64,000 nucleotides of DNA, taken from the IMG/VR virus record IMGVR_UViG_3300032093_000109, positions 1,314-65,313 of that record, one strand, 5' to 3'. Made by a program: the position numbers and the translations under genes. Positions 11,385 through 59,947 of this stretch are shown here, piece by piece. Numbering within the stretch: the first letter of the stretch is position 1; each line of letters starts with the position of its first letter. The notes below the pieces were generated by a model that did not search any database, was not told the origin of the DNA, and saw only the letters and a list, made by a program, of their open reading frames with translations. This stretch comes from a virus. Taxonomy: Duplodnaviria; Caudoviricetes.

Positions 11385-11609
11385 TCAATTCAAGTCGTCG
11401 TCCATGTCGCCATTGGCTTTGCGGGCGGCGTGCACGATGTCCAAGATGTGGCGTTCAGCAACCGCCAGACCTCGAATGACACCACACAGTTCTTTGTACG
11501 CAGGAAAATCCTGACAAGCGCCGGTAGCAACGTCATCGGCGTAGTTGTTCATGTCCGTTCGAATTTTTTCTCGCAGCACACGGATGAACGCATCGGTTTC
11601 AGGGCTCAT
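11385..11609 (-). CDS. small conserved phage protein
   Basis: D..AY..LCGVIRGL motif, between portal and groES. Confidence 0.65.
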   Translation of the reverse strand: MSPETDAFIRVLREKIRTDMNNYADDVATGACQDFPAYKELCGVIRGLAVAERHILDIVHAARKANGDMDDDLN

Positions 11610-14029
11610 TGGTTACCTTTCGTATTACGTTGCATGGCCGTTATTTCGGAGATTTCCGTTTTGTCGGCCTTATCCAGTGCCTCGACAGCCAAACGCTGCT
11701 TGGCGAGTTCGGTCTGGTCTGCCTTGTTGGCGGCGTCCATTGCCAGACGCTGCTCTTCGATGGCGATTTTCTGGTTGCCCTGCTGAATTTTTGCCTGCGT
11801 CTCGGCATCCTTGCGAGCTTGCTCTTGCATCTGCATCTGGATGACGGGGTCTTGTGCTTGCTGTTGGGCTTGCTGTTGAGCCGCTTCTGCTTGATTTTTC
11901 TGCAGCAAACGGGTGGCGGCTTGCGCTGCCATCTGAGCAACCTTGGCCGCGACCTCGGGGTCCATGTTCTCGTTTTCTTCCTCCGAGGGCAGCAGAGCAC
12001 CCAACTGCTGCTCGATCTGCTTGCGGTACTCGAAGGCCATGTGCTCGTTGATGTGAGCCATTGCTGCCGCCTGAATCTGCTGGGCCATGGGGTTCTGGCC
12101 GATGAGCTGCGCCATCTTGGGGTCCTGCATCGCAGCCATGTGCACGGCGATGTGCGCTTGGTGGTCCTGCTCCAAGAACGCCTTGACGGGCTTGCCGTTG
12201 ATCAGGTCCATGTTCTCGCGCACGGGGTCTGTGGGCTTCTGGTCATCCTCGATTGGCACCAGCTTGTTGGCATCCTTGATACCCAGCACGTCAAGCATCT
12301 GGCGGTGCAAGAGCGGCAAGTTGTAAATCTGTGGCGACATCTGCGCCAGCTGGATCACCGCTTGGTACTGCACCACACGCTGCGCCAGAGTGGCCGCGTT
12401 GGGGTCGCTCACGGGAATGATCTCCACGTAGCTGAAGTCGGCCTTGCGTGCGTGCGGCTGTGCGTCTTCAACCTCGTAGTCGTAATCGTCGTCCGCGTAG
12501 TCGCGCATGATGGCGGCGAGCATCTTCAGCTCTTGCTTGAGCGAGAAGTGCACACGGGCCTGAATGGCAGACATCACTTTGAGGGTCCGCTCCAGAATAG
12601 CCAGTGTGGTGCCCACAGGAGCATTGGCTGACATGTCTGAAATCTTGTTGTCGGCCGAGGCCGCGAAGCGGCGGCCTTCCTCGACGATCTTGTCCATCAG
12701 GCCCGACAGGACCAGCGAAGGCTCCTTGTAAGGCAGCGGTAAGATGTTGTCGCGGATGTTGCCCGAGCCCACGTCCACGTCGCGGAACTCGCCCGGAGCG
12801 ATCGGGGTGTCGTCGCCCTTGATACGCAGGCCACGGGTCTTCAAACCACCGGGCAGGTTGCTCAGCGTACCAGCGTCAACCAGCTGACGCATCAGGCTGG
12901 TGGCGCTCTTGGCATAGCCGCCGATCAGGTGGAACAGACCGAAGCCGTACGAGCCGAAACCGGGGATGTACTGGTAGTGCACGAAGTGCTGACGCTTCAA
13001 GCGCAGGTTGTCGTCAGGGGACCAGTTGCGGCGGATGGCCAGAATGTCGTTGGTCGAGGTCAGCACCGTCACGATGTAAGGCAGGCCGATGCCTGTCTCC
13101 ACGCCGTTCTTGTCCTTGTCCTCAAAGCCGGGAAGGTCCAAGTCAACCTGAATCTCCAAGAGCTCGTAGCGGTCGTCGTTCATCGAGCTGAAGCCGGTCT
13201 CTTCGTCCTTGGCCTTGCGGATGTCGTCGATGTTGCGGGTGGGCTCGCCCAAGTCCACCTCACGGTAGAACCCGGCGTTCATCAGCTTGAGAATCTCGTT
13301 CTCGGTCTTACGCATCACGTGGGTGACGCGGTAGCAAGTGAAGATGTCCGTCACGCCGTAAGGCAGGATCACGTCCTCGGCAGGCACAAACACCGATGTC
13401 TGGCGACCCAAGCTGGGGTCGTAATAAACCTTCTTGAACGCAGAACCCGTGGCCGGCAGGCTCCAGAGCATGCGCTCGTGCTCAGGGCGGAACTCAACCA
13501 TGACCTCGGTCAACTGGTAGTTCATGTCCTCGGCAACGCGGCGGGCGGCTTCTTGCTTTTGCGTTGTCTGCTTGCCAACAATTTTTGTCATCACCGGGCC
13601 TTTGGCCGGGAATGTCTCCATGATGGTCTCGGACTGGAACCGCACAACGGCTTCAGTGATCATGGGGTGGAAGACGCCACAGGCACCGTTCCACGGCTCC
13701 GTGCGCTCCTCGTACTTCAGGCCCAGCAGCTTCAAGCCTTCCTTGTACGTCTCTTCCCAATCCTTGCGGCTGTCCTTGTCGTTCTTGACGTCATCGCTCA
13801 AGGTCTCGGCCAGCGCATGCAGGTCCTGCTCTTCCATGAACTCGGCGATGTTGGACTCGAAGTCATCAGCCGAAGGCTCACCGGGCTTCAAGCTGATCTC
13901 CAACCCGTCGATGCCGATGTTGACTTCCTCGGGGTCCACGATCTCAATCTCGATCGGGGACTCCTCTTCTGCAGCTTCATCAATGCCCATGGGGGCTTGG
14001 TATAGGGCTTTGTCAATGTTGGTCGCCAT
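11606..14029 (-). CDS. portal protein
   Basis: 807 aa; SRKDWE, GSAFKKVYYD, GFGL.HLIGG, RQLVDAGTLSNLP; Gln-rich C-terminal barrel; follows terL. Confidence 0.85.
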   Translation of the reverse strand: MATNIDKALYQAPMGIDEAAEEESPIEIEIVDPEEVNIGIDGLEISLKPGEPSADDFESNIAEFMEEQDLHALAETLSDDVKNDKDSRKDWEETYKEGLKLLGLKYEERTEPWNGACGVFHPMITEAVVRFQSETIMETFPAKGPVMTKIVGKQTTQKQEAARRVAEDMNYQLTEVMVEFRPEHERMLWSLPATGSAFKKVYYDPSLGRQTSVFVPAEDVILPYGVTDIFTCYRVTHVMRKTENEILKLMNAGFYREVDLGEPTRNIDDIRKAKDEETGFSSMNDDRYELLEIQVDLDLPGFEDKDKNGVETGIGLPYIVTVLTSTNDILAIRRNWSPDDNLRLKRQHFVHYQYIPGFGSYGFGLFHLIGGYAKSATSLMRQLVDAGTLSNLPGGLKTRGLRIKGDDTPIAPGEFRDVDVGSGNIRDNILPLPYKEPSLVLSGLMDKIVEEGRRFAASADNKISDMSANAPVGTTLAILERTLKVMSAIQARVHFSLKQELKMLAAIMRDYADDDYDYEVEDAQPHARKADFSYVEIIPVSDPNAATLAQRVVQYQAVIQLAQMSPQIYNLPLLHRQMLDVLGIKDANKLVPIEDDQKPTDPVRENMDLINGKPVKAFLEQDHQAHIAVHMAAMQDPKMAQLIGQNPMAQQIQAAAMAHINEHMAFEYRKQIEQQLGALLPSEEENENMDPEVAAKVAQMAAQAATRLLQKNQAEAAQQQAQQQAQDPVIQMQMQEQARKDAETQAKIQQGNQKIAIEEQRLAMDAANKADQTELAKQRLAVEALDKADKTEISEITAMQRNTKGNQ

Positions 14030-14038
14030 TTCGGTTCC

Positions 14039-14836
14039 TTAAATCAGTTTGCTACCACCGGCGTTGTCCACACGACCGCCGTTAGCGTAACCAATCAGTT
14101 TTTTCAAACCACCCAGCATGCCGTCTTCTTTTTCGGGCTGGCGGGTGTACGGGTCTATATCACGGGGGTCAAGGCGCGTTTGGCGCAGCCCGGTGACGGC
14201 GTTGTAAGTCTCGCGCACGTCCTTGTCTTTGAACAAGGTTTTACGAAGAACGGGGTCTTTTGTCAGGTCCACGTTCTGTGCAGCTTCCGTGCCAGCCAGT
14301 GTAGCAAGTATTTCGTAGAGGCCAACACGCCCTTGTTCGCGTATGAACTCAGGGTCCATGTACGCATTGTCGATGCCGTACTTTTCTTTCAAATACGGTG
14401 CCGATTCAATCAGACCATCCAAAAAAGCACCGCGCTTGCGTACGATCTGTGTGGTCGGTTTGTCCGAACCGTCGCCCAGAAGTTCTTCAAACTTGTCCCG
14501 CGTTAGCTGTGCAAACCCAAGGTTCTGGCGTGCGAGCAAGTGCTCAATCTCATGCGCTGCTGTGTCCGCTCCGGCGCTGGGGGCCTTAAACACGGTCTGT
14601 TCGCGTCGGCGGTTGTTGTCCTTCTCGCTGGCACGATTACTTCCTATGACAAACCCACGCGTGTTTGTGTCTTCCAAATACGGCAAGTCCCGCACCCGTA
14701 AGCCGGGTAAACCTGCGCCTGTGCTGGGCATCCGGTCGATCTTAGACGGCGAGGTCCTTGTGTCTCGCACGCCGACCTGCTGCATTGCCTGCAGCGTGGC
14801 CAAGTCCGGTGTGTAGTCGTCGTTTTGCTTTGCCAT
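14039..14836 (-). CDS. HExxH-containing protein with C-terminal YANGG motif
   Basis: AAHEIEHLL; ends GYANGGRVDNAGGSKLI; sits between terL and portal. Confidence 0.6.
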   Translation of the reverse strand: MAKQNDDYTPDLATLQAMQQVGVRDTRTSPSKIDRMPSTGAGLPGLRVRDLPYLEDTNTRGFVIGSNRASEKDNNRRREQTVFKAPSAGADTAAHEIEHLLARQNLGFAQLTRDKFEELLGDGSDKPTTQIVRKRGAFLDGLIESAPYLKEKYGIDNAYMDPEFIREQGRVGLYEILATLAGTEAAQNVDLTKDPVLRKTLFKDKDVRETYNAVTGLRQTRLDPRDIDPYTRQPEKEDGMLGGLKKLIGYANGGRVDNAGGSKLI

Positions 14837-14845
14837 CTGGACCCC

Positions 14846-16387
14846 TCAGTAGTACGCCGCACGCCGTGGGATGCGGTACATCAAATCTTCTTGCTCGTCG
14901 GAGTCTAACGCAATGAAGCCCCCCTGCCTATAGCGCAGGAGCGCCTGTGTGGTGGTGTCCACGTAGTCGTCGTGCTCGCCCACGGGGAAGGCTGCGATCT
15001 CCTCGATCACCTCCCGCGCCCAGCGGGTGTCGGGTGCCCACACCGTGCCGGAGGCAAACAAGTCAGCGACCGCGTTCAGACGCACCATCTTGTCGTTGCC
15101 CCGGCTGGGGCTGAACTCTTGTACGGGTATACCCGTAGCCCGCAGCTCTTGGATCAGCGGTGCACCCGCCGCCTTCTTTTCAACGATGAACGCATCTGGC
15201 TGCCATTCCTTCCAGTGCTTCAAGGCGCACTCCTTCAGCTCTGGGAACGTCATGCGGGCCTTAAAGGCGTCGAGCAGGATCAGGTTGGGCTTGCCCCCAG
15301 CCTCCTCGTTGTAGAAGACACCCCACGTGGTGCAGGCGCTGTAGTCGGAGTTGTTCTTGGTCTCAAAGGCCGTGTCCCAGCTCTGGATGATGTACTCGCA
15401 CGACGGCGGGTCGTCACGCTCCCATATACGCCACATCTTGCGCGAGACCAGCGCAGAGGTGTCCGATGTGGGCTGCTGCATGTACTGCGCGTTCCAGAAC
15501 CGGGGGTCCATGTTGGCCTTCTTGGACTGGAGCTGGTCCAGTGGCCACTGCTCTGGCCAGAGCGACTTCTCGTTCTCCTCACCCTCGTGCAGGATGGCCG
15601 GCAGCTCCACGATGTCCCAACGGTCGGCTTCGGGGTTGCGGGTCTGGAAGTCAAGCAGCCGCCCGGTCAGGTCCAAGAGACTCCAGCGGGTCATGATCAC
15701 GATGATCGCGCCACCGGGCATTAAGCGCTGCAAGGGGCCTGTTTGGAACCAATTCCACGCCGTGTCAAATGCTAGACGCGAGTTAATTTTGACGTCCTGC
15801 TCCGAGTGTGGATCGTCAATCACGAAGAGGTCGGCACCACGGCCGGCCAGCGCACCGCCCACACCCACCGCATAGTACTGGCCCCCGGACTGGGTGGACC
15901 ATTTGCCCGACGCCTTCTGGTCGGAGGCTACCAGTGTGCTGGGGTAGAGCTGGCGGTACTCATCCGTGTCAATCAAGTTCCTCACCCGGCGGCCAAAGTC
16001 CTCGGAGAGCGACGCGGTGTGCGTGCCCATGATGATCTTCTTCTCGGGGAAGCGCCCCATGAAGTAGGCCGGGAACAGGTAGGAGCTGAACTCGGACTTA
16101 CCCATACGAGGGGCGATGTTGATGATCACCCGCTTCTTCTTGCCCTCGACCACGTCGGTGAAGATTTTGGCCAGTTTGCGGTGATGAGCCCCCACCTTGA
16201 AGCCGGGGTAGACGTACTTGGCAAACTCAATCATGTCCGAGCGTCCAAGCACGTTGGACAAGCGCTTTTCGCGCTCTTCGAGCATCTCAAAGAGGTCCAT
16301 CTTCTCTTTGACGGTCATGGTCGGAAGCACCTTCTGGAGGGCTTCGAGCTCCCGCTTGGAGAGGGAGGTCAGTTGTTCAACGCGCAT
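14846..16387 (-). CDS. terL: terminase large subunit
   Basis: Walker A APRMGKS, Walker B FVIDDP, IMTRW motif III, nuclease SWDTA...HDDYVD. Confidence 0.95.
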   Translation of the reverse strand: MRVEQLTSLSKRELEALQKVLPTMTVKEKMDLFEMLEEREKRLSNVLGRSDMIEFAKYVYPGFKVGAHHRKLAKIFTDVVEGKKKRVIINIAPRMGKSEFSSYLFPAYFMGRFPEKKIIMGTHTASLSEDFGRRVRNLIDTDEYRQLYPSTLVASDQKASGKWSTQSGGQYYAVGVGGALAGRGADLFVIDDPHSEQDVKINSRLAFDTAWNWFQTGPLQRLMPGGAIIVIMTRWSLLDLTGRLLDFQTRNPEADRWDIVELPAILHEGEENEKSLWPEQWPLDQLQSKKANMDPRFWNAQYMQQPTSDTSALVSRKMWRIWERDDPPSCEYIIQSWDTAFETKNNSDYSACTTWGVFYNEEAGGKPNLILLDAFKARMTFPELKECALKHWKEWQPDAFIVEKKAAGAPLIQELRATGIPVQEFSPSRGNDKMVRLNAVADLFASGTVWAPDTRWAREVIEEIAAFPVGEHDDYVDTTTQALLRYRQGGFIALDSDEQEDLMYRIPRRAAYY

Positions 16388-17042
16388 CGGCGTCGGCCGG
16401 TGGGTCTACGGGGGCTTCACCTGCGTCCAGCGGGGTATCCGGCAGGTCATCAGGCAGGGGCTCATCCATTCCAGATACGTCCTCAGCGTCAATCACGCCC
16501 ATGAAGCGGTTGAGCTTTTCCTTGATCTTGGCGTCCAGATCAGAGTCAGAGAGCGCGGTCTTCTTGACCTCAATTCGCTCGGTAAACAGCGCCACTTCGG
16601 TGACTTTGCCCAGCATGTCAAGCGCCTTGAGACGAATTTTTGCGTCTGGGTGCTTGGTTTCCTCCAGAATCTGCGAGACGGCATAGCCGCGCAGCTCCTT
16701 GGCCTGCTCCATGAACTCCCAGTCATACGCGCTGAGCATGCCCACCAAGTGCTGTACCGCCTGCGGTACCTTGATCTGGGTCAGTTTCGTGCGTATGTCG
16801 AGCACATCGGTGCCGGACGTCATGGCTGTGAACGCCTCTCGCGCTGCTTGGCGCTGGGCATCATCTACTGCCGCGTCGGGGTCTACATCGTCGAAGCCCT
16901 CCAGAAATGCGCTGGTGGCCGCTTGTGCATCGACAATGCTGGCTGGGTCTGCCTTTGCCAAAGGCAAAAGCATCTTGGCGTCGTGCTGTTGCACGGCGGG
17001 GGTGAATTGCGTGGGGTCATCCACGATAAGGTGTTCAAGCAT
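16377..17042 (-). CDS. terS: terminase small subunit (probable)
   Basis: Directly upstream of and overlapping terL; RLKALDMLGK...LFTERIEV motif; likely start ATG 17042. Confidence 0.65.
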   Translation of the reverse strand: MLEHLIVDDPTQFTPAVQQHDAKMLLPLAKADPASIVDAQAATSAFLEGFDDVDPDAAVDDAQRQAAREAFTAMTSGTDVLDIRTKLTQIKVPQAVQHLVGMLSAYDWEFMEQAKELRGYAVSQILEETKHPDAKIRLKALDMLGKVTEVALFTERIEVKKTALSDSDLDAKIKEKLNRFMGVIDAEDVSGMDEPLPDDLPDTPLDAGEAPVDPPADADAR

Positions 17043-17053
17043 ATTTGCGTAGG

Positions 17054-17083
17054 TTGGCAACCTCGATGTACACAGTCTATACT
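17054..17083 (+). promoter_or_regulatory. sigma70 promoter for the sRNA, divergent from terS
   Basis: TTGGCA-18-TATACT, ending ~7 nt before the first sRNA hairpin. Confidence 0.6.
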
Positions 17084-17089
17084 ACCACC

Positions 17090-17171
17090 GCAGTCTGCGC
17101 AAGCGGGTTGCAGTGCTATTCTCCTTGTTGAGTTTGGCCCCGGTTGCAAGACTGGGGCCTCTTTTTTATTT
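17090..17171 (+). ncRNA. putative anti-Shine-Dalgarno sRNA
   Basis: Two GCAA-tetraloop hairpins with G-U pairs valid only on the + strand, a linker containing UUCUCCUUG, and a U-tract. Confidence 0.7.
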
Positions 17172-17176
17172 GGCTA

Positions 17177-17192
17177 TGTCCATTGTTAGACA
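17177..17192 (-). promoter_or_regulatory. operator-like motif B (TGTCwAACAmTGGACA), copy 1
   Basis: Reverse complement TGTCTAACAATGGACA matches the copies at 23802 and 34422. Confidence 0.6.
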
Positions 17193-17424
17193 AGGTTAAT
17201 TGGAATTTTTTATAATATAGGTGGGGGTAGGCGTTAATTAATTGAGGGGGTGGGGTGCTTTTTAATTGGTTGATTTGACAGCATTAGACAAAAATGGTGG
17301 GGGTGGTTATGGAACAGTGTTATTGTACAGCGCCACCACACACGCCCAAAAGGGGTTCCCCCCGGTGGGTGGGGGTCAGAACCGCCAAAATTACCAAACC
17401 GCAAAACTGCCAAAAAAGCTGGAA

Positions 17425-17433
17425 TGGTATAAT
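17425..17433 (+). promoter_or_regulatory. extended -10 early promoter
   Basis: TGGTATAAT upstream of the first rightward gene. Confidence 0.6.
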
Positions 17434-17515
17434 AGAGGCATCTAATCAAGGTGGTTAGGTAATAGGGACACGTTGTCCCTATTTGTTTTTGTTCTTTTCA
17501 ATTTGGAGTTTCATC

Positions 17516-17908
17516 ATGTCTCAATTCAAACCAGTCGTCGCCGCTTATCGCCAGTTCCTCAAGGCAGGCACAACCTACGGCACAGCCCTGCGCGACGTTG
17601 CCGCACAACTCAAAGGCGCATCGTGTCCCGAACTCATGCGAGAGCTGGCGACTGTTCACGCGGAGCATTTCGAGTGCAAGGTGTCGTGGTCAGGCAAAGG
17701 CGCGGCGCAGTTCTTCAAGGGTGCAGAGTATTCGTTCGAAGGGCGCTTTGATGCGGCCTACAAGTCTTGGCAACGCAACGTCTTGGTTCACTTCAGTGCG
17801 CCCAAGGAATCGTTCAAGACCGAAGCCGACCCTGTGGCCAAGATGATTAAGGCGATGGAAAAACTCACGCCAGCACAGCGCCGCAAAGTCTTGGCCGCTT
17901 TTCAGTGA
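17516..17908 (+). CDS. early hypothetical protein
   Basis: GGAG RBS then ATG 17516 (MSQFKPVV...); good codon bias. Confidence 0.7.
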   Translation: MSQFKPVVAAYRQFLKAGTTYGTALRDVAAQLKGASCPELMRELATVHAEHFECKVSWSGKGAAQFFKGAEYSFEGRFDAAYKSWQRNVLVHFSAPKESFKTEADPVAKMIKAMEKLTPAQRRKVLAAFQ

Positions 17909-17994
17909 CAGGGACAGCGTGTCCCTGTTTTCTTCCGCACAACTCAGAGCGTCTGGGTTGTGCGGTGTTTCAAAACCCGTCAAACGGAGAACCC

Positions 17995-18162
17995 ATGCAA
18001 CTCATCACAACCCTTGGTAGGGCATCGCTCTACCGCAAAGAGTCCTACAACAGCCGCACAACACCGCTCATCGAATGGGTCGTGCGTGTCGGGGACAAGA
18101 CGATGCGGGAGTGCCGCACCAAACGAGACGCCATGACATGGCTCAACATCTACAAGGATTAA
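17995..18162 (+). CDS. early hypothetical protein (55 aa)
   Basis: GGAG RBS, MQLITTLG... Confidence 0.6.
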   Translation: MQLITTLGRASLYRKESYNSRTTPLIEWVVRVGDKTMRECRTKRDAMTWLNIYKD

Positions 18163-18281
18163 GCACCATGCCCCAAAATCACCCAACCTTTATGCGTTCC
18201 TTGCATGACTGCATATCCATACAGTGGTTGCCGCGCTGTCCAGTATTCGTGACAGCAACTGGCAGATATAGCGGTCATCTA

Positions 18282-18507
18282 CAACCCGCATGAAACCTAG
18301 CGCCTGCCAAAAAGGTGGCTCTATATATATAAATTTATTTAATTAAAAGATATATATATACACCCCTTTTTGTTTTGCCACCTTCTTGCGGAGAAAGAAG
18401 CTCTCAGGCTTTTTGGTTTTTCTATTTCCCCAGCGGCATGTTCACCGAACCCAAAAACCCTGCAACCCGCATAAACACAGGGCTTCTAGCTTGCCGTGCA
18501 ACCCGCA
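18282..18507. other. putative replication origin
   Basis: 39-nt almost pure A/T tract at 18322-18360; CAACCCGCA repeats at 18282, 18463 and 18499; no credible ORF. Confidence 0.5.
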
Positions 18508-18620
18508 GTTAGTGGCAGCGTCACTGGCGCAGCGCCAGTAGGTGTCAGTACGTGTGACACTTAGCGGTACAATTCACCGCAGGGACAGCGTGTCCCTGTC
18601 CCACAAACCACGGAGCCCCC

Positions 18621-19364
18621 ATGAAAATCCAACCCGACGGCGACTTCGCCCTGCTCATACCCGACCCACACGATGAGGGCGTGAACCCACTCACGCTATG
18701 CCCCAAGTGCAACGCCTACAAACCGCCGAACAACTTCAAAGAGCACCTGACCAAGCTCCAAGCCCGCAAGCAAGGGTTTGCTGGAACCCACGCCGTAGAG
18801 ATAGAGCGCTCCATGTGCCTCGCGTGCCGCAACCCACGCAAGGAGTTCAACCCCATGAGCCTCAAAGAGATATCCAACGCCGTGTACTACGGGGTGATGA
18901 CCCAGTACGAGGCTGACGTGTTACGTGAGAAGCGAGCCAAGGCCCGCAGTATGACGAGCACCAACAACATGAGGGAGTACCACCACAACAAACGCAAGGA
19001 GGCGTGGCGCGGTGTTCGTTCCGTACTCAGAGCGGACTCCCAGTGGGCCAGCAATTTGCTACGCCTACTAAGCCGGACAGACAGGGGTAGCACCAAGCTC
19101 TACGCTTTCGTAACGCGTTACAGGGGCGTACTACATAAGCACATGAGTGAGAAGGTGTGGTCAATCATGCGCACCGGCCCCAACTTCGACATACCACCAC
19201 CCCCACGCAGACTCATCGAGTTACTGTCCGACCTGCCCGAGCCAGTCGGTGACCTGCGGGACGAGTGGTACATGAAGATACCTTACGAGCAGACGAACAG
19301 GATAAAGCCCCCTGCCTTAGTAAGGGAGGCGTTAGGTAACCTCGTCCTCCCCCAACCAGAGTAA
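18621..19364 (+). CDS. Zn-finger hypothetical protein
   Basis: CPKC...CLAC; GGAG RBS; bracketed by motif A copies. Confidence 0.7.
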   Translation: MKIQPDGDFALLIPDPHDEGVNPLTLCPKCNAYKPPNNFKEHLTKLQARKQGFAGTHAVEIERSMCLACRNPRKEFNPMSLKEISNAVYYGVMTQYEADVLREKRAKARSMTSTNNMREYHHNKRKEAWRGVRSVLRADSQWASNLLRLLSRTDRGSTKLYAFVTRYRGVLHKHMSEKVWSIMRTGPNFDIPPPPRRLIELLSDLPEPVGDLRDEWYMKIPYEQTNRIKPPALVREALGNLVLPQPE

Positions 19365-19449
19365 CAGCAGGGACAGCGTGTCCCTGTCCACAAGTAAAGC
19401 CGAAGTCGGTGCGGCTCTCAATCACCGACACATCAACTGGAGAATCATC

Positions 19450-19647
19450 ATGACCTATGCGTCAAGTATCAAGGAGAGAGAACTCGCCAAGCTCCGCACC
19501 CTGCGTGCTGAGTTCGCAGAGCGAGCAGAGATGAGCCGTCGCACGGATGAGTTCATGCGTAAGGCTGAGAAAGCGCAAGCACAGGACGAGCTGGACTGGG
19601 GCCGCATCAAGGCCACCAGCTACCGCCTCAGACTCAACAAACGATAA
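19450..19647 (+). CDS. early hypothetical protein
   Basis: GGAGAATCATC-ATG start. Confidence 0.65.
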   Translation: MTYASSIKERELAKLRTLRAEFAERAEMSRRTDEFMRKAEKAQAQDELDWGRIKATSYRLRLNKR

Positions 19648-19658
19648 GGAGAAAGCAA

Positions 19659-19865
19659 ATGACCACACTAACCGGACACCAGATAGAGGCGGCTCGCCTA
19701 TTGACCCTGCGCCAGATGTTGAACCTCGAAATCAAAGGACTGCACAAATCCCGAGGCCCGACTGCTTACTCAACGCTCAAGATGATGGGCTACAAGGGCT
19801 CACGACAAGACGTATTCAACGCGCTCACTGAGTGGCGCAACAACCTGATGGGAGAGACAGCATGA
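19659..19865 (+). CDS. early hypothetical protein
   Basis: AAGGAG RBS; L.LEIKG...SRG.TAY..LK. Confidence 0.65.
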   Translation: MTTLTGHQIEAARLLTLRQMLNLEIKGLHKSRGPTAYSTLKMMGYKGSRQDVFNALTEWRNNLMGETA

Positions 19866-20612: not shown

Positions 20613-20842
20613 ACTACGACCTCGACACAACAGAAGGCATGACCAACGCTGTGCAGTGGAACAACAAACAACTGGCACGCGTAGCCGATGGGGGTATCTG
20701 GATAGTCCCCCGCTCTGGCTTGATTGTCCGCATCGTGGATGGCATGCGCAAGGTGGCGTCTATCCGTGAGGGGCATACGCCTGACCCCAGTGTGCGCCGT
20801 GTCATGGTGGCCGCTGGCTGGACTGTGCAAGACGCCAAGTAA
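20609..20842 (+). CDS. early hypothetical protein
   Basis: GGAGG RBS, ATGA overlap; DGGIW.VPRSG. Confidence 0.6.
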   Translation: MNYDLDTTEGMTNAVQWNNKQLARVADGGIWIVPRSGLIVRIVDGMRKVASIREGHTPDPSVRRVMVAAGWTVQDAK

Positions 20843-20911
20843 TTCAGGGACAACGTGTCCCTATCCGTAGCCGATGCGGTTTCATCGGCACATCAACAGG
20901 AGATTTTCATC

Positions 20912-25835: not shown

Positions 25836-26254
25836 GCAAACAAACCGAAGCAATGAAGCGATGGGTTGAGGTTTTCGATGGTAATTGGCACGATGAACCT
25901 GTCGATTCGGAATGGGCAGACAGAGCACATCAAGCCCTTGCCGAGATGCGCCAAGCCATCGCAGAGGCAGAGCAGCCAGCACAAACGTGTAGCCGCCACG
26001 CCGAAGCCGAACGACTGGCTGATCAGTTGGAAGACCCGGTGAACGCAAAACTGTACCTAGCCCCCTACATTGCCGCCGAACTGCGCCGCTTGGTGTCGTT
26101 CAACAACGACCTGATGGACGAAGTGGCACGGCTACAAAAGCGTGAGTGGGTGGGTTTGAACTGGGATGAACTGCCGGACACGCACTTTGGCGACGCTGCG
26201 TTCTTAAAGGGCGCTCAGTGGGCAGAAGCCAAGATCAAGGAGAAGAACACATGA
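25832..26254 (+). CDS. hypothetical protein with REWVGL...EAKIKEKNT module
   Basis: ORF track; ends in the junction repeat. Confidence 0.65.
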   Translation: MSKQTEAMKRWVEVFDGNWHDEPVDSEWADRAHQALAEMRQAIAEAEQPAQTCSRHAEAERLADQLEDPVNAKLYLAPYIAAELRRLVSFNNDLMDEVARLQKREWVGLNWDELPDTHFGDAAFLKGAQWAEAKIKEKNT

Positions 26255-27227
26255 CGCTTCCCGGACTCATTGATGCGGTCGAGTTTCGACGCGACAGCTA
26301 CGGCCTGACGCAAGGTGAGTGGGCCTTTGTGCTTGGCATCCAGCCTAGTCATTACAGTGAATTTGTCAACAGCAAACGCGCCCTGCCTATTGGTGCAATG
26401 GCCAAGTGCTTCGAGTACGGAGTCCCGGCTGAGTGCCTGTTTCAGTGCCTACCGAACAAAACCATCAGGCACATCAAAGCCAAACTCAAGGAGAAGAACA
26501 CATGACAGCAATAACACGTAAACAATTCGCAGAGGACGTGTTTGCGATACTAAAACAATGCGTTGCTGAAGAATACGAAGATGCTACCGAACAGGAGCGT
26601 GAGCAAGCGATGGCAAGAATACTGGACGCTTGGGGCGCACAAATGTTTATGGGTTCAAAGGAGAAGAACACATGAAAGACCTCACAGAAAAAATTCGTGT
26701 CCGCATCATGCAGGAAGCATACGACCTCGCAGACCGCAACGATAGCGAAGGCTACAACTCGGTCAAGGTGATGTGTAGTGATGTTTTGACGCTTTTGCCG
26801 CGACGGGAGTGGGTGGGGCTGACGGATGCGGAATATCAGGAGATACTTATAAAGCATGACGGTAGTGGATTGATTTTGTTTTACCACTTGATTGAAGCCA
26901 AACTCAAGGAGAAGAACCATGGATGACGGAATGTTTGACGATGTTCCACTGATGAACAAGGCGCGAGACAAGGCGTGGGAAGCTTTTACCAAGCGCAAGA
27001 ACGCCGCCACCCTGTTCACCGATGACAAAGACTTTGAGTTCCCGCTCAACGGTGGGTTCTACGCCATGTGGTGCGTATGCTGGGCCAAGGCGTGGGATGC
27101 TGGGTTTAAGTCGGGCTATGAGGCCAAGGAAAAAGAATGATCAACCGCTTCATCACATGGTTGCGCCGTGATGATCAGCTACTTGAGCCACTGCGCAGAG
27201 AGATTCAACAGAAGGAGAAGAACATGG
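26225..27227 (+). repeat. gene-junction repeats (GCCAAACT)CAAGGAGAAGAAC(AC)ATG
   Basis: Copies at 26236-26254, 26487-26505, 26658-26675, 26897-26921 and 27212-27226. Confidence 0.9.
26251..26505 (+). CDS. XRE-type HTH protein
   Basis: RRDSYGLTQGEWAFVLGI..SHYSE..N.KR.L. Confidence 0.7.
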   Translation: MTLPGLIDAVEFRRDSYGLTQGEWAFVLGIQPSHYSEFVNSKRALPIGAMAKCFEYGVPAECLFQCLPNKTIRHIKAKLKEKNT

Positions 27228-29315: not shown

Positions 29316-29554
29316 TCGACAGCGTAGCATCGCTGCCCCACGGAGCCGCCGTACACGTGGCGCTTACCATACGGGAGTTGATACGCTGCGCTAATGATGG
29401 GCACTCGCTTGTATTGATACTTCAGGACAAAAGCGAAGTTGCTCAGATGCACGCCTTCGGCGACAAGGACGTGGTGTTCGAGCTCGTGTCCTGCGCATAC
29501 GAGACGGTGCTCAACGAGCAGATGCACAGCACACCAAGCGGGGTGATGCAATGA
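29285..29554 (+). CDS. hypothetical protein
   Basis: AAGGAG RBS; stop overlaps the polA start. Confidence 0.55.
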   Translation: MDKEAAARELIDSVASLPHGAAVHVALTIRELIRCANDGHSLVLILQDKSEVAQMHAFGDKDVVFELVSCAYETVLNEQMHSTPSGVMQ

Positions 29555-31578
29555 GCATGCCCTTTGATCGACTCATCGTGCTGGACTTCGAGACAGCATG
29601 GGGTCGTACCGCTAAGCTGGGCTTCTCGTGTCAGACAACCGAAGAATACCTCCGTGACCCACGCTTCAAAGCATGGGGCCTGTCATGGAAAGACATTGAC
29701 CTCAGCAACCCGCAGCTGTGGCAACCCGGCCAACCCATCAGGACTGGTGCTGTGTGGGTCAGGGGCTCAGGCATCAAAGCGTGGGGCGAGGACATTGACT
29801 GGAGCCGCACCGCAGTGGCATGCCAGAACACCCAGTTCGATGGCGCTATCCTGTCTTGGGTCTACGGCATCCGCCCTGCCTTCTTGTTCGATACCCTGTC
29901 GATGGCACGCGCACTGTACGGCATCGAAGCAGGCAACAGCCTGAAGAAACTCGCCGAGCGCTTTGAGCTGCCACCCAAGGGCGATGGGCTTGCGTCCTCC
30001 GAGAACATTCTGGACGCGCTGCCCTTTGTGATTGAGCAGGAGTTGGCCGAGTACTGCAAGCACGACACGTGGTTGTGTGAACAGATTCTGCTGCGCATGC
30101 TGCCCGGATACCCCGCCAGTGAGCTGCGCCTGATCGACATGACGCTTCGCATGTTCACAATACCTGAGCTGGAGCTCGATGCCAACATGCTCACGCAAGC
30201 ACTGCTTGAGGAGAAGCTTAACCGTGGGGCGTTGCTCAACCGCCTGAAAATCACGGACTCGGTGCTGGCATCCAACGATCTGTTTGCCGAGGCACTGCGC
30301 CAGCTGGGCATCGAGCCCCCGACCAAGAAAAAAAAGCCCACGGCCAAAACGCCCAAGCCTGTCGGTGTGAACTTTGCCTTCGCCAAGACCGATGCGATGT
30401 TCCAAGCCATGCTCAACGGTGACAACGAGGACGTGGCCCTGCTGTGTGAGGCGCGTCTGAAGGTCAAGTCCACATCCGAGCGCACCCGTGCGCAACGCTT
30501 TCTGGACATCAGCAACCGAGGCACGCTGCCTGTGCCGCTCTCATACTACGGCGCGAAGTCGGGGCGCTGGACCGCAGCCAAGGGCTCGGCCATCAACATG
30601 CAGAACTTAAAGCGCGGGTCCTTCCTGCGCAAGGCCATCATGGCCCCCAAGGGTAAGGTGCTGGTGGTGGGTGACTTGAGCCAGATCGAACCGCGTGTGT
30701 TGGCATGGCTCTCGGACTACGACGAGATGCTGGCGATCTTCCGCGCTGGCGGTGACCCGTACGCTGCGTTCGGTGCGCAGATGTTTAACCTGCCCGGTAT
30801 GACCAAGGACTCGCACCCAGTGCAGCGACAGTCAGCCAAGTCAGCGCTGCTTGGTGCAGGCTACGGTCTGGGTTGGGCATCGTTCGCTGCTCAGTTGTTG
30901 GTGGGCTTCCTCGGGGCTCCGCCCTTGCGCTACACAAAGGCCGACGCCAAGCAGCTGGGTATCACAGGCCGGCATGTGCACAGCTTCTTGGAGAACAAGC
31001 ACCACATGGAGAAGATGTTTGAGATCGCCCACATCTGCACGGACGAGGAGCTACTCATTCACTGCGTAACAGCCAAGGCCATCATCGACAAGTACCGCGC
31101 CACAGCGCAGCCTGTTGTAGGTCTGTGGAACCTGTGCGGTGAGCTCATCGAGCACAGCCTGTACAACGGCAACGAGTACACGCACAAGTGCCTGACCTTC
31201 CGCAAGGAGGAGATCGTGCTGCCCAACGGCATGAGCATCATCTACGACGGGCTAAAGCCCAGCAAGGACGAGGAAGGCAGATTGCAGTGGACATACGGCG
31301 CAGACGATGATAAGCTGTACCCCGGAAAAGTCGTGAACAACATCACACAGGGGACGGCCCGTATTGTGATGACCGATGGCATGTTGCGGGTAGATAAACG
31401 CTACCCTTGCAAGGGAACGGTGCACGACGAACTCTTGGCTTTGGCTCTTGAAGAACACTCTCAGGAGGCACTGTCGTGGGTGATCGCGCAGATGACGAAG
31501 GAGCCGAAGTACATGCCGGGTATCCCGCTGGCAGCAGACGGTGGTGTGCACCGCAGGTACGGGCTTGCAAAGAATTGA
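29551..31578 (+). CDS. polA: DNA polymerase family A with 3'-5' exonuclease
   Basis: ExoI LDFET; motif A DLSQIEPR; motif B RQSAKSALLGAGYG; motif C VHDE. Confidence 0.95.
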   Translation: MSMPFDRLIVLDFETAWGRTAKLGFSCQTTEEYLRDPRFKAWGLSWKDIDLSNPQLWQPGQPIRTGAVWVRGSGIKAWGEDIDWSRTAVACQNTQFDGAILSWVYGIRPAFLFDTLSMARALYGIEAGNSLKKLAERFELPPKGDGLASSENILDALPFVIEQELAEYCKHDTWLCEQILLRMLPGYPASELRLIDMTLRMFTIPELELDANMLTQALLEEKLNRGALLNRLKITDSVLASNDLFAEALRQLGIEPPTKKKKPTAKTPKPVGVNFAFAKTDAMFQAMLNGDNEDVALLCEARLKVKSTSERTRAQRFLDISNRGTLPVPLSYYGAKSGRWTAAKGSAINMQNLKRGSFLRKAIMAPKGKVLVVGDLSQIEPRVLAWLSDYDEMLAIFRAGGDPYAAFGAQMFNLPGMTKDSHPVQRQSAKSALLGAGYGLGWASFAAQLLVGFLGAPPLRYTKADAKQLGITGRHVHSFLENKHHMEKMFEIAHICTDEELLIHCVTAKAIIDKYRATAQPVVGLWNLCGELIEHSLYNGNEYTHKCLTFRKEEIVLPNGMSIIYDGLKPSKDEEGRLQWTYGADDDKLYPGKVVNNITQGTARIVMTDGMLRVDKRYPCKGTVHDELLALALEEHSQEALSWVIAQMTKEPKYMPGIPLAADGGVHRRYGLAKN

Positions 31579-31598
31579 TTTTTATAAGGAGAAAGCAC

Positions 31599-31904
31599 AT
31601 GAACAAAATACCAAGCCGCCTCATGGTTGGACCCAAGTGGTTCACCGTGGAGCACCCCAAAATTATGTACAAGTACGGGTGCATGGGGTCTGTACGCTAC
31701 GACATCCGCGTGATCAACGTAGCCAGTCACAGCAGCCGCACAGGCAAGCGCTTCACCCCAGCGCAGCAGGAGAACACGTTTTGGCACGAGCTGACGCACG
31801 CTATCTTGAACGACATGGGCAGCCCCTTGTGCGAAGACGAGCGCTTCGTCACCCTATTCGCTGACCGATTAACCAAAGCCATCCGCACTGCGAGATTCAA
31901 ATGA
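31599..31904 (+). CDS. small HExxH metallopeptidase-like protein
   Basis: TFWHELTHAIL...E.FV. Confidence 0.7.
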   Translation: MNKIPSRLMVGPKWFTVEHPKIMYKYGCMGSVRYDIRVINVASHSSRTGKRFTPAQQENTFWHELTHAILNDMGSPLCEDERFVTLFADRLTKAIRTARFK

Positions 31905-39607: not shown

Positions 39608-39788
39608 CTACCCATGGGACAGGCTGGAGAAAGGGCAGGGGTTCTTCATCCCTGCCCTCGACCTTGAGAAAGCCAGAGAAGACGGACTGATTGCAGCTAT
39701 GCAGGTCCGCTTCTTCTACCCCCACTACATGTACGTCATCAAGGACGGACTCATTGGGGTCTGGTTCTACCGAACGCCCATCACTTAG
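39597..39788 (+). CDS. small conserved phage protein
   Basis: YPW..LE.GQGFFIP.LD; converges with the giant gene. Confidence 0.6.
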   Translation: MRINYPWDRLEKGQGFFIPALDLEKAREDGLIAAMQVRFFYPHYMYVIKDGLIGVWFYRTPIT

Positions 39789-42700
39789 CCATCCGCGCAA
39801 CCTCTTTGACCTGCTCCGCCAGCTTGCGCTGGTACAAGTCAATCTCGTTCAGGCGCTCGCGCTTCTCTGCGGCGCTGAAGTCCGGGTCGCTGTTGATGGC
39901 TCGGCGCATCGCAGCCAGCTCACCCATGGCCTGTTGGAAGCTACCACCGGTAGAGCTCAGCGCGATCTCACGTGCATACTTGTCGGCGAAGGCCCGTGCC
40001 TCGGCCTGACGGCCGTCCGTGACCAACCGCTTGAACGTGCCGGCTGCCTGCTGCCAGTCCTCAACATCCGCGTACACCGACGCCACGATACCGCGCCCGT
40101 TGTTGGGTTGGAACGCAGCGCCGAAGAATGGTGTCTCGGTGAGCTTGCTCTCGGCGTTCTCTCCTGCAGTGTCGCTGTTGAACGGGCGCAGTACCGGGTT
40201 GACCAAAGACATTGTCAAGATACCAAGGCTGCCGGTGTAGCCGCGAACCAAGTGCTCGACCTGCAGCGGAGACACGCCGACTTGTCCCATCAGCTTGGCC
40301 AGCTCCGTGGTGTTGGGGCGGTAGCGCTCGGCCGGGATGGTGCCCAGTTCGCGCTGGCTCTCGATCGGTGCCTTGGTAAAGAAGCTGTAGTTGGCCATCG
40401 ACTCAATGATGGGCTTGGCAATCGTTGGGATGTCGCCGGGAATGGACATACCCAGAACGTGACGCAAGCCCTTCAGTGTGTCCTTGGATTCGGCATCATT
40501 AAACGCTGCGTTGAAAATCAACTCAGGGATGGCTTTGGCCACAGCACCGACTTCAAACGGGATTGGTATCCGAATCGCCGCCTCAAGTCCGGGTACAGGG
40601 ATGAACCAGTTCATGGCCCGTTCTTCTGGCGTGGCGTTTTTGTACGCCTCGTCGTCTTGCATGGCCACAGCGTACGCCAAGGTAGCGCCCATCATCAATG
40701 CTGCGCGTTGGTACAGCTTCTGACGAACCTGCAGCTTGTCTTGGAAGACCGTTTCGCCCGTCACACCCGTGCGCCAGACCGAGTCCAGACCTTGGAGCTG
40801 AGCGTTGAAGAACGGGATCAGCGTGGAGATCATGTACAGGCTGGTGGACGTACCCCGGCGTGAGAAGTTCATCACCTCGGCGGCACCCAGCGCGGCTTCG
40901 AAGTGGCTCATGCCTTGCTCACGGTACTTGTCGTACAGCACAGCGCGGGTAGCGGTATCGCCTTGCAGGGCGAAGTTGTCCAGACTCTGCATTGCAGAAC
41001 TCCAGCTCATGCCGCCTTGATTGGCCAAGTCCCGCAGGGTGCGTGAGGCGTCGTTAAAGTCGCCCGTCATCACGTTGGAGCTGACAGCGCCGGAGCGCAT
41101 GAGTTTAATTTCGGTTGGGCTCAGGCCACGGCGAATCTTCGTCATCTCTTTGATCGAGCTGACAATAGGCGTGAAGTTCAAGCCCGTGACCATCCAAGCG
41201 TGCAATGGGTCACGGATCATCTGGCGGATCATGTACAGGGGCATGCGAACAATAGACGAGCGCAGCCATTGCGTTGGCATACCAGCAATTTTCAGCGCCG
41301 TAGGTACGGACGCTTTGATACCGTGCAGACCTTGGAGCAGTAGCTCGGCAGGAATATCTTTGGGGAACAGGTCCGCATCTAACTTGACCCAGAACGACTT
41401 GCCGGCCTGCTTGAAACGAATTGAGTTGGCCGGACCCTCGCCTTCGACGATCGTACCCATACCCAAGCTCTGCACCATGTACCCTACATCACGCGCTTGC
41501 AAGTTTTGCATGGACATGCGGGTGAGCAACTGGGCGTTCTGCATCACGCTCTCAGTAAAGCCGAGGAAGTCTTTCTCCCCGCCAACCAAGTCCTTGAGCT
41601 GGGGCTGCTGAATGACGTTACCAATTGTGCGGCGGGTGTTACCCACAAGCATCTCGATGTTGCCGTTATCCGTCTGGCGATAAAACGGCACGTAGTTACC
41701 GCTCTTAAAGTAGTTCCACTCCGCGTTTGTGAAGACGCCCGCAGCGTGCGCAAAGTCCAGCATACCTAAGTTGTACTCACGGAACTCTTTCTCCGCCTGC
41801 TCAAACGCTTGCTTGACCTTGGGGTTCTTTGCGATGAACTCCTTCTGCTCACGGATTTCTCGAACAGTTGGAGGGTTGCGCATGTTGAGCACCTCATACC
41901 CGCGCTTGTCGCCCTCAATACGCTTGATCTGCATGTACTTGTAGAACTGCTCTTCGACGGCCTTCATGTTGCCGATGTCTGGCACAGCGCCGCGCAGGGT
42001 CTGCAGTACCTTCATGACCGACGGCTTCTTGTCATCCACGTCTACGCCGAAGTAACCCTTCTCGTCCTTGACCAACTTCAAAGGGCCGTTCAAAAGGGCT
42101 TGGTGTACAAAACGGTTGATCTCACTGTACAAGCGCATGTAGATGCGTGTCTGCATGGCATCGGTCTCGGTCAGCTTCTTGCCGCTTAGACCCATCTGCA
42201 CCAGAGCTTCACGTGCGCCCCATGCGTCCAGTGTTTTGACGCGCAGACCCAGCGCCCATGTGGAAAGCTTTTCGTTGAAGGTTTTGCTGCGTTGATCGCT
42301 GCCGCCGAAGGACCGCCGCATGCTCTCAGGCACATTGGCGTTGTACTTGGCGTTGTCGCCGGGGACGATACCCCGCATGACCGAGGCGACGCGGGCAGCC
42401 GCGATAGGCTGTGCAGGAGCAAACAGCTTGTAGATGTTCTCGACGGCTTGGTCAGAAACAGTCTTTGGCGAGAAGCCCAGCATGCGCAGAATAGCGTCGT
42501 ACATGCGCTGCAGAACACCGCGCTCGTCCAGCATGTTGCGCAGCTTGTTGTTGGACATTACCTCGGAGACCATCTCTTCCACGGAGTACTTGGCGTACTC
42601 GCGGTTGAAACGGGGGTCGGCCTGCACTTTTGCAAACAGGCTTTCCAAGTCTTGACGGGCTTGGCGCTGCTCGGGGGTCAGTGTGGCTGGGTCTGCGCGG

Positions 42701-58933: not shown

Positions 58934-59947
58934 TTAAGCGATGCGGTAGCGCACCACGACTATGCCGGAGCCACCTGCGCCGGAGTTGAACCCACGGAAG
59001 GCCGCTGCACCGCCACCGCCACCGCCGGTATTGGCAGTTGCAGAGGTTGGTGCCGTTTCGCCGTTGGTGCCGTTACCGCCGCCGCCGATACCACCCGTAG
59101 GGGAGCCATCTGTGATGGATGTACCGCCGCCACCACCGCCATAGTATTGGGTCGAACCTGTGCGGATGGAGTTACCAACACCGGGGCCGCCAGCACCGCC
59201 GCCGCCAAAGTTCAAGACGGCATTGCCCCCAGCACCGCCAGCACCACCACCACCGCCGCCGTTGCGATATGCGTTGCCTGCAGAGTTCCAACCATAGCCA
59301 CCAGCGTTGCCTTGGCCCGATGTCCCGGAGCCGCCTGCAATTGTGTAGTCGCCGCCAGCCGTTGGGGTGCTTCCACCGCCGCCACCAGAGCCGCCAGAAG
59401 CTCCAGCTTCAATACCGCCGCCGCCACCACCAATTGCAGTCAGGCCAAAAATTGAGGAGTTGCCGCCGTTGTTGCCGTTGCCAAGGCCGGACTGCGAAGA
59501 GCCACCAGAACCAACAGACACGCCATAGGACCCAGCAGCTTGCGTCGTGGAGCTTGCCAAAACGCCACCAGCACCGCCACCACCGCCGCCAGTGAACTCG
59601 TAGCTGCTGTACCAGCCTTTGCCACCAGAACCACCACCCGCAACAATCAGATAGTCGATGCTGTTAAAGCCCGACGTGCCTGCGTTGCTGACTGTCAGCG
59701 TGCCACCGGAGGTGAATGTGTGGACCTTGTAAGTTGCACCCCCGGAGGAGTAGGTTGTTTCCGTGCCGCCAGAGGCAATGATGAACCGAGACTTGCCGTA
59801 CAGGTTGCTCATGGAAATGGCACCGGAAGGCACTCCGGCCAGCGCACGGACATCCGCGTCGTTTAGGCTGATCTGCGCCGTAGACGACTTCTGCAGCTCG
59901 ACGTTGACCTGAGCCAGCGTGATGGTGCCTGAACTTGGGAGTGCCAT
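58934..59947 (-). CDS. glycine-rich tail fibre/adhesin protein
   Basis: MALPSSG.I.L..VN.EL N-terminus; HTFTS.G, YLIVAGGG.GG, GGSGIVVVRY. Confidence 0.8.
   Translation of the reverse strand: MALPSSGTITLAQVNVELQKSSTAQISLNDADVRALAGVPSGAISMSNLYGKSRFIIASGGTETTYSSGGATYKVHTFTSGGTLTVSNAGTSGFNSIDYLIVAGGGSGGKGWYSSYEFTGGGGGGAGGVLASSTTQAAGSYGVSVGSGGSSQSGLGNGNNGGNSSIFGLTAIGGGGGGIEAGASGGSGGGGGSTPTAGGDYTIAGGSGTSGQGNAGGYGWNSAGNAYRNGGGGGGAGGAGGNAVLNFGGGGAGGPGVGNSIRTGSTQYYGGGGGGTSITDGSPTGGIGGGGNGTNGETAPTSATANTGGGGGGAAAFRGFNSGAGGSGIVVVRYRIA

Follow-up and report, generated by a model that had tools for sequence, protein, structure and literature searches.

The subject of this analysis is a putative small RNA (sRNA) gene in a virus of the Caudoviricetes. 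The window, the whole stretch of DNA that was analyzed, consists of 64,000 nucleotides (nt) and corresponds to bases 1314-65313 of the 65,313-base-pair (bp) IMG/VR virus record IMGVR_UViG_3300032093_000109, which is rated 100% complete. A leftward gene block runs from 17042 down to 1 and contains the portal gene (11606-14029, minus strand), the TerL gene (14846-16387, minus strand; phrog_38, E 7e-102), and a putative terS (16377..17042, minus strand). The latter is the first gene of the block, overlaps the start of TerL, and is assigned by position only, with no PHROG or Pfam match. A rightward block (17516-39607) includes a DNA polymerase (29551-31578, plus strand), an SNF2 helicase, and a DUF927 protein, and a second leftward block extends from 64000 to 39781. 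Judging by gene content and layout, the plus-strand block is taken to be early/middle and the minus-strand blocks late. The sRNA gene lies on the plus strand between terS and a strong, conserved early promoter (17187..17216, plus strand; TAGACA-18-TATAAT), which is located just 3′ of the sRNA terminator and reads TTGACA-17/18-TATAAT in relatives.

Anatomy and conservation of the RNA gene

The predicted sRNA promoter is of the sigma-70 type (17054..17083, plus strand) and consists of TTGGCA (17054-17059), an 18-nt spacer, and TATACT (17078-17083). It fits 10/12 consensus positions in a pattern scan, and its -35 box and the ATG of terS, which is read from the other strand, are 12 nt apart. Judging from the -10 box, the RNA would start at ∼17090, so that the predicted 5′ end forms hairpin 1 (17090..17111, plus strand), with 9 bp, a GCAA loop, and three G-U pairs. 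The single-stranded linker that follows (17112..17135, plus strand) carries the seed UUCUCCUU, which is complementary to AAGGAGAA; linker bases 17119-17126 read TTCTCCTT, with CUCC at 17121-17124. The gene ends in an intrinsic terminator (17136..17167, plus strand) made of a 10-bp GC-rich hairpin with a GCAA loop (hairpin 2, 17136-17159) and then UCUUUUUU. The T-rich tail directly after hairpin 2 is TCTTTTTT, and the pattern scan scores the site as a terminator. The loop of this hairpin is GCGA in the contig of a related strain, which is still a GNRA loop. The letters and coordinates given for the element in an earlier note on this DNA are all correct, including the reverse complement of 17113-17138 and the matches at ribosome-binding sites (RBSs) that the note had listed.

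Folding from 17090 yields the two-hairpin form as the minimum-energy structure (-32.7 kcal/mol). Folding from 17088 favors a form with cross-pairing between hairpins 1 and 2, which leaves the linker as the loop (-33.5 kcal/mol, z -3.0). The near-equal energies of the two forms suggest that two structures compete, an alternative absent from the earlier note. The opposite strand folds less stably, at -24.1 kcal/mol.

A TerL search of IMG/VR returned 530 related stretches, of which 80 loci were kept, and the layout was counted in the 57 loci in which 1100 nt or more precede TerL. The layout sought begins with a TAYAnT box and a hairpin, often with a GCAA loop; these are followed by a stretch containing CTCC, in most cases another small hairpin, and finally a GC-rich hairpin with a T-run. 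It is present upstream of terS in the same orientation in 38/57 loci, which collapse to 28 unique sequences; L076, which has no -10 box, was left out. As the -10 box, the terminator, and the T-rich tail are criteria of the finder, their occurrence in 38/38 loci or 28/28 unique copies is by construction, and this includes the T-rich tail found in 28/28 unique copies. A TTGnnn element is present 16-18 nt 5′ of the TAYAnT box in 22/28 unique copies.

A covariance model built from 24 copies finds exactly one match in each of five complete genomes (G000 to G004). The model also detects copies in L080 and L035, which the pattern finder missed, and in loci with short flanks, and 38/57 is therefore a lower bound; no copy is detected by it in the records of L036, L045, L065, L024, and L048. 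In the Rfam search that the earlier note had named as a check, no Rfam 15 family matches the window at its gathering threshold. The best sub-threshold scores in 16950-17550, all weak and on the plus strand, are 22.7 bits for suhB/mmgR (gathering 41), 22.1 for SorY (111), and 21.9 for RF02278 (50).

The first covariance model retained just 5 terminator pairs, and the structural evidence consequently rests on the comparison of folding between strands and on covariation in hairpin 1. The plus strand folds more stably in 24/28 unique copies, by a mean of 5.6 kcal/mol. In nine of the 28 unique copies, hand-picked after inspection for their GCAAG loop and arms of 9 nt, 97.5% of the cells of hairpin 1 are paired, 7/9 pairs have changed on both sides, and 0/500 shuffles are as good. 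Many of these pairs are G-U, which corresponds to A-C on the other strand. Most relatives have an extra small middle hairpin. The CUCC is wholly unpaired in the minimum-energy fold of 22/28 unique copies; in the window copy, three of the four bases are unpaired.

An alignment of 24 of the 28 unique copies, with near-duplicates left out, reveals TCTCC as the sole near-invariant stretch outside the hairpin 1 loop and the terminator. The conservation of the linker on which the earlier note relied therefore holds for (T)TCTCC(T), and not for the flanks, which vary between lineages. The synteny, conservation, and covariation in relatives back the note's claim of a plus-strand RNA gene with its own promoter and terminator, and an sRNA gene of ∼75-80 nt is very probably real. 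On this evidence, the predicted sRNA is a member of a new, widespread family in a large clade of uncultivated freshwater phages, with its syntenic site between terS and the early promoter. Sequencing runs with DNA related to the window are labeled lake water, and no RNA run is among those listed; two runs yielded contigs of 90-95% relatives, and one of these runs probably consists of DNA. The nearest cultured relatives by TerL, e.g. Pelagibacter phages, have <52% identity, a phage collection contains no DNA similar to 16300-18300, and a search for an integrase (PF00589) found none.

A different arrangement is seen in five loci without the RNA (L024, L030, L033, L034, L037), in which terS lies only ∼75 nt from the early promoter. 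On the terS strand of these loci, TTGCGT-17-TAGAGT stops 6 nt short of the ATG, and the terS message may therefore have no leader there, or almost none.

Two classes of ribosome-binding site and their complementarity to the RNA

The earlier note had proposed that the core of the RNA is complementary to the RBSs of many early/middle genes, and a comparison of early (plus-strand) and late start regions in the five complete genomes bears this out, with hardly any late RBS that fits. GGAG is found 3-11 nt before the start codon of 141/231 early and 77/199 late genes. The start-proximal GGAG is followed by AA in 68/141 early as opposed to 9/77 late genes (Fisher 2.5e-8), in the same direction in each genome. 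Late genes prefer C (29/77) or T (23/77) after GGAG, and the GGAGC form is present in 19/141 early versus 29/77 late genes. This early/late split between RBSs is a new observation. The exact complement of GGAGAA is UUCUCC, and at least eight contiguous Watson-Crick bases to the 27-nt seed region are available at 66/231 early and 7/199 late starts (Fisher 3e-13). Such complementarity occurs at up to 20-33% of early-strand starts; in the window alone, the counts are 8/42 early and 0/45 late. The relation of the seed to GGAGAA is general.

Duplex energies agree with the counts. In the window, the 12 best predicted duplexes are all with plus-strand genes, and the energies of early and late starts differ (Mann-Whitney p 0.006 and 0.001), as the earlier note had expected; a generic anti-Shine-Dalgarno (anti-SD) string gives no such separation. 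When the core is held fixed and the flanks are shuffled, 1-7% of the shuffles pair equally well with the early starts of the window, and late starts show no excess. The pairing beyond chance within the window alone is therefore modest. With the core fixed and each flank shuffled 100 times in each of the five genomes, the fraction of shuffles as good as the actual flanks is 0.02, 0, 0, 0, and 0 for early starts and 0.63, 0.12, 0.02, 0.04, and 0.15 for late starts. Four partial records without the RNA at the terS site display a weaker contrast (early 17/51 versus late 6/23) at low power, and the comparison of early GGAGAA with and without the RNA gives p = 0.07.

The best predicted trans target (26479..26504, plus strand) is the start region of gene 26502-26675, GCCAAACTCAAGGAGAAGAACACATG, with a duplex of -28.6 kcal/mol. 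The second-best (19632..19661, plus strand; ACTCAACAAACGATAAGGAGAAAGCAAATG) belongs to gene 19659-19865 and reaches -28.2 kcal/mol. A further predicted target (31586..31601, plus strand; AAGGAGAAAGCACATG, gene 31599-31904) would engage the seed and the 5′ flank with a one-base bulge, at -22.4 kcal/mol.

The best target lies in a repeat at gene junctions, with copies at 26226, 26477, 26658, and 26895. The 3′ flank of the window RNA matches GCCAAACTCAA of this repeat with a modest minimum-energy p of 0.02-0.05. The 11-mer is not rare by itself, as ∼0.5 matches are expected in 128 kb, and it is found at two copies of the one repeat. The junctions share this module of 25-30 nt at the DNA level, and it is present in relatives too. 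It codes for the C-terminal residues (A)K(L/I)KEKNT*, with which four successive small proteins (26039-26926, plus strand) end although they are mostly unlike one another elsewhere, and the stop codon of each of these genes overlaps the next start as ATGA. The earlier note had proposed that cassette genes join the regulon by acquiring this repeat. As relatives that have no RNA at the terS site carry the repeat GGAGAAGAAC as well, and as it codes for a protein tail, it is not evidence for such recruitment, and this part of the proposal is weakened.

Proposed trans repression and competing explanations

Repression in trans of early/middle GGAGAA-type starts by pairing with the RNA is a plausible reading of these data, though short of probable. 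We infer three steps from the sequences: transcription of the RNA, its pairing in trans, and repression as the outcome. The RNA would carry a GNRA hairpin at its 5′ end, then a pyrimidine seed (UUCUCCU) in single-stranded form, and a rho-independent terminator. The seed would pair with translation-initiation regions of the GGAGAA type, sometimes extending into the spacer and the start codon. GGAGAA would mark the early/middle genes, late GGAGC and GGAGT sites would mostly escape, and the outcome would be class-specific repression of early/middle translation. The promoter looks like that of a host gene, and the RNA may accordingly be transcribed from the onset of infection, with its effect building up as it accumulates. 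The switch timing, the host targets, and the carrier state put forward in the earlier note are conjectural.

Variation in the flanks of the seed offers a lineage-specific view of this relation. The three bases after GGAGAA on the early-sense strand were counted independently of gene calls. In G001 (AGC, 10/37), G002 (ACA, 5/37), and G003 (GCA, 8/45), the commonest trimer is complementary to the flank of the RNA that the phage itself encodes; the own flank is also on top in G011 (5/53) and ranks second in G004 (4/28). Orthologous early genes bear the spacer of their own phage, as illustrated by the helicase gene, with GGAGAAAGCATG in G001, GGAGAAACATG in G002, and GGAGAAGTAAATG in G004. The own RBS type is GGAGAAAGCATG in G001 and GGAGAAGCAAATG in G003. 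A 13-mer test of own versus other RNAs is significant for G001 (4e-5), G003 (5e-5), and G004 (0.04). In L022, which has the seed variant GGAGAC and no start codon opposite, an ATCAC spacer is shared with its own RNA, and in L070, which has the seed variant GGAGAG, 1/4 GGAGA-type RBSs fits; both loci have few early genes.

Several results weigh against trans repression as the explanation. The window's own trimer, TAG, follows GGAGAA in 1/33 cases, the tracking is absent in G012 (0/10) and G015 (0/17), and the own flank accounts for just 2/31 in G013. The dominant RBS fashion of G013, GGAGCAATG in eight start regions, is unrelated to its RNA, which indicates that lineage-specific fashions can arise without the RNA. 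The 13-mer test gives a negative value (-0.74) for the window and lacks significance for G002; the 5′ flank of the window RNA fits the early RBSs of the window worse than the RNAs of other phages do, and a cross-phage matrix of duplex energies gives the own RNA only a weak advantage. The flank that tracks in relatives falls inside the stem of hairpin 1. Part of the genes of the five genomes are orthologs of one another, and pooling them in Fisher tests exaggerates their independence; the gene calls and start sites come from our own crude caller, which is based on a simple codon score. Any CU-rich seed fits SD sequences to some degree. All of the complementarity statistics would equally be expected if the complement of the seed on the terS strand served as an RBS of the early type, and a start codon does follow the complementary GGAG at 3-11 nt in 16/28 unique copies (23/38 loci). 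For the covariation of the sRNA core with RBSs of related phages, which the earlier note had put forward as a check, the outcome is partial: roughly half of the lineages show tracking of the flank, and the window does not. An RBS fashion AAAGGAGCAATG(N2-3)ATG, which bears no relation to the flank of its sRNA, is seen at eight early start regions of L109 (G013:C1:4800-22351).

The start codons opposite the seed lead to the main rival explanation, in which the RNA is real and acts as a cis-antisense RNA on the fully complementary leader of the terS/late message, with its likeness to early RBSs being secondary. Such an RNA could block the strong RBS of a leader frame, or of terS where the two are fused, and in this way control terS translation by coupling, trigger cleavage of the duplex, or act through convergent transcription. 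Every copy of the RNA gene is found immediately upstream of terS, in the reverse orientation. The terS start usually has no SD sequence of its own in relatives, and the ATG at 17042 of the window has none at normal distance, with GAGG 19 nt upstream. In 14 of the 16 unique copies with a start codon after the complementary GGAG, this is an ATG at 5-7 nt, and the chance of an ATG at such spacing is estimated at ∼5%. The leader frame is fused in phase to terS in the L003 group, ends 6 nt before the terS ATG in L063, and has a stop codon overlapping the terS ATG in L072 and L078. Moreover, the lineages with the strongest flank tracking (G001, G003, G004) are those having the leader ATG.

Other features of the locus speak against cis-antisense control. 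Twelve unique copies keep the seed with no start codon opposite it; copies of this kind include those of the window, L002, L008/L021, L009, the L012-L020 group, L022, L023, and L070. Neither ATG, GTG, nor TTG occurs 3-11 nt after the minus-strand GGAG of the window. The earlier note's statement that this sequence is not simply an RBS therefore stands for the window and is weakened by the 16 unique relatives with a start codon. The leader frames, of 6 to at least 28 amino acids (aa), show no conservation of length, frame, or sequence; a one-base difference shifts the frame in L025. The window RNA (17090-17167) stops short of the terS ATG at 17042, and a pattern scan of 16000-18500 finds no minus-strand sigma-70-like site that could serve as a late promoter upstream of the element. 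Furthermore, a perfect antisense partner needs no conserved seed, and cis-antisense pairing alone leaves unexplained why the seed fits RBSs of the early and not the late type. Control of the late leader in cis is a serious rival to trans repression, although on balance a less likely one.

The two modes of action are combined in a broader proposal, in which a single sRNA would run a temporal program across the clade. In this proposal, an RBS address composed of GGAGAA and a lineage-specific spacer would co-evolve with the seed and its flank, late genes would escape, and the same RNA would be antisense to the late leader, thereby tying early shut-off to the onset of the packaging genes. This broader program is possible, and is put forward more hesitantly than trans repression by itself.

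Two other explanations are improbable. The RNA may be real and act mainly on host messages or factors, by titration of SD sequences or as part of an Hfq-dependent host regulon, with the match to phage genes being incidental. In having a long U-tail and, ahead of the terminator, a stretch rich in U, it has the typical architecture of trans-acting sRNAs that depend on a chaperone, and its weak sub-threshold likenesses in Rfam are to bacterial sRNAs only (suhB/mmgR 22.7 versus 41; RF02278 21.9 versus 50). A host target, however, explains neither the early/late RBS split within phages nor the lineage-specific tracking of flanks, and is therefore given little weight.

Equally improbable is that the element works on the terS strand only, as an RBS, a leader frame, or late promoter signals, that the plus-strand promoter and terminator yield no functional RNA, and that the terminator merely insulates the early promoter: the start codons after GGAG in 16/28 unique copies agree with it, and so does a possible weak late promoter, in which the hairpin 1 loop GCAAGC reads TTGC 15-16 nt 5′ of a TATACA-/TGTACA-like box, but that putative -10 box lacks the final T while the plus-strand boxes are good, the compensatory changes and many G-U pairs of hairpin 1 work on the plus strand only, 24/28 unique copies fold better on that strand, and no plus-strand gene that would need termination was found upstream of the sRNA.

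If the regulon of trans repression is true, the flavor of an RBS would be a temporal address read by an RNA, which would explain the differing SD contexts of early and late genes and provide a compact, portable, and programmable shut-off module. The regulon aside, the locus defines a new, widespread, and well-delimited candidate sRNA family in uncultivated phages, with clear support from covariation, and the early/late RBS split can be tested in other groups of phages.

Known systems and neighboring features

Phage T4 RegA is a translational repressor. Its role is covered in the available part of PMC3014915. The nearest functional parallel is the T4 endoribonuclease RegB with ribosomal protein S1. 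According to the available part of PMC1702504, RegB/S1 cuts T4 early mRNAs at a site that consists of GGAG and an A-rich stretch, with the consensus GGAGRAYARAA and the T4 form GGAGAAUAAAA. The early RBSs described here, with GGAGAA and an A/C-rich spacer, resemble the RegB site. As in the RegB/RegA system, the phage would tag its early messages by RBS flavor and a phage factor would inactivate that class; unlike in T4, the effector would be a base-pairing RNA rather than a nuclease or a repressor protein. A search of the 65,313-bp record for a RegB homolog (PF10715) gave no match, and the comparison with RegB is therefore functional only. The regulon, if real, would be an RNA-only counterpart of T4 RegB/RegA.

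Several short antisense RNAs offer parallels in form. The phage RNAs sar, OOP, and aQ act on the transcript from the opposite strand of the same site. In plasmid R1, the antisense RNA CopA blocks the tap leader frame, which is needed for repA because the latter has no good RBS of its own. Like P22 sar, P1/P7 c4, lambda OOP, and aQ, the window RNA is a short, structured phage RNA with its own promoter and terminator and predicted pairing at or near an RBS. Those RNAs have one dedicated target each, whereas many early starts are complementary here, and the window, unlike sar, OOP, and aQ, has no start codon opposite the seed. The leader frame that ends at the terS ATG in L063 and L072/L078 is reminiscent of CopA/tap/repA; unlike tap, the leader frame is not conserved and is absent in the window and in 12/28 unique copies.

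Among cellular RNAs, the bacterial sRNAs RsaE and LhrC have C/U-rich anti-SD seeds, and the motif of RF02278 is presumably anti-SD as well. The window RNA shares with bacterial sRNAs that have C/U-rich seeds (RF02278, RF00519 suhB/mmgR) its short length, a terminator, and an exposed pyrimidine motif. RF02278 and RF00519, in contrast, are cellular and have no tie to a temporal class of genes, and since the scores are far below the gathering thresholds, the window RNA is not a member of either family. The available part of PMC4603805 describes RF02278 (Betaproteobacteria toxic sRNA) as toxic in E. coli and of unknown function. Regarding phages, the available part of PMC12197685 reports that c4 antisense RNA binds around the RBS of ant and that most of the known small RNAs of phages have a single target or are directed at genes of the host. 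In the literature searched, which covers part of the journals and some sources in part, no sRNA was found by which a phage targets the RBSs of an entire temporal class of its own genes. As a possible precedent for an anti-RBS RNA, sRNA2 of PAK_P3 was ruled out, as it carries an 11-base stretch like tRNA T-loops according to the available part of PMC4933390.

Additional features surround the locus. The early promoter is flanked by an inverted TGTC..GACA element in the 17172-17460 region. After the promoter, a gene-free stretch of ∼240 nt contains four or five GGTGGGGG-type repeats and is closed, ahead of the first early gene, by a terminator-like hairpin at 17461-17483. The 17172-17460 region may encode a further non-coding RNA, act as a regulated leader, or be a pac/ori region. 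The hairpin is one of five copies of a perfect palindrome, (C)AGGGACA-NNN(N)-TGTCCCT(G), at 17461-17483, 17905-17930, 18576-18601, 19364-19389, and 20841-20866. One copy is present in the leader of the first early gene, the rest lie directly 3′ of the stop codons of the first early genes, and only the first two copies are followed by a T-rich run. These palindromes could be attenuators, processing sites, or operators of a dimeric regulator.

The late-strand genes display features of their own. A minus-strand open reading frame of 2914 aa (39781-48525) has LPD38, a large polyvalent protein-associated domain, near its C-terminus as its sole Pfam match (E 4.5e-31). A virion RNA polymerase with hairpin promoters like that of N4 was suspected from this gene and the layout and was rejected, as the protein has the LPD38 domain only. 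GCC/ACC-rich repeats at 59001-60381 and ∼five tandem 12-nt units of the TTACCCGTGACG type at 60518-60577 lie within late-strand genes, and both probably encode glycine-rich or repeat-containing structural proteins. At 13996-14846, contigs of related strains in two sequencing runs skip 849 bases and carry ∼38 other letters, so that those strains lack the gene located between portal and TerL (14039-14836) or have something else in its place.

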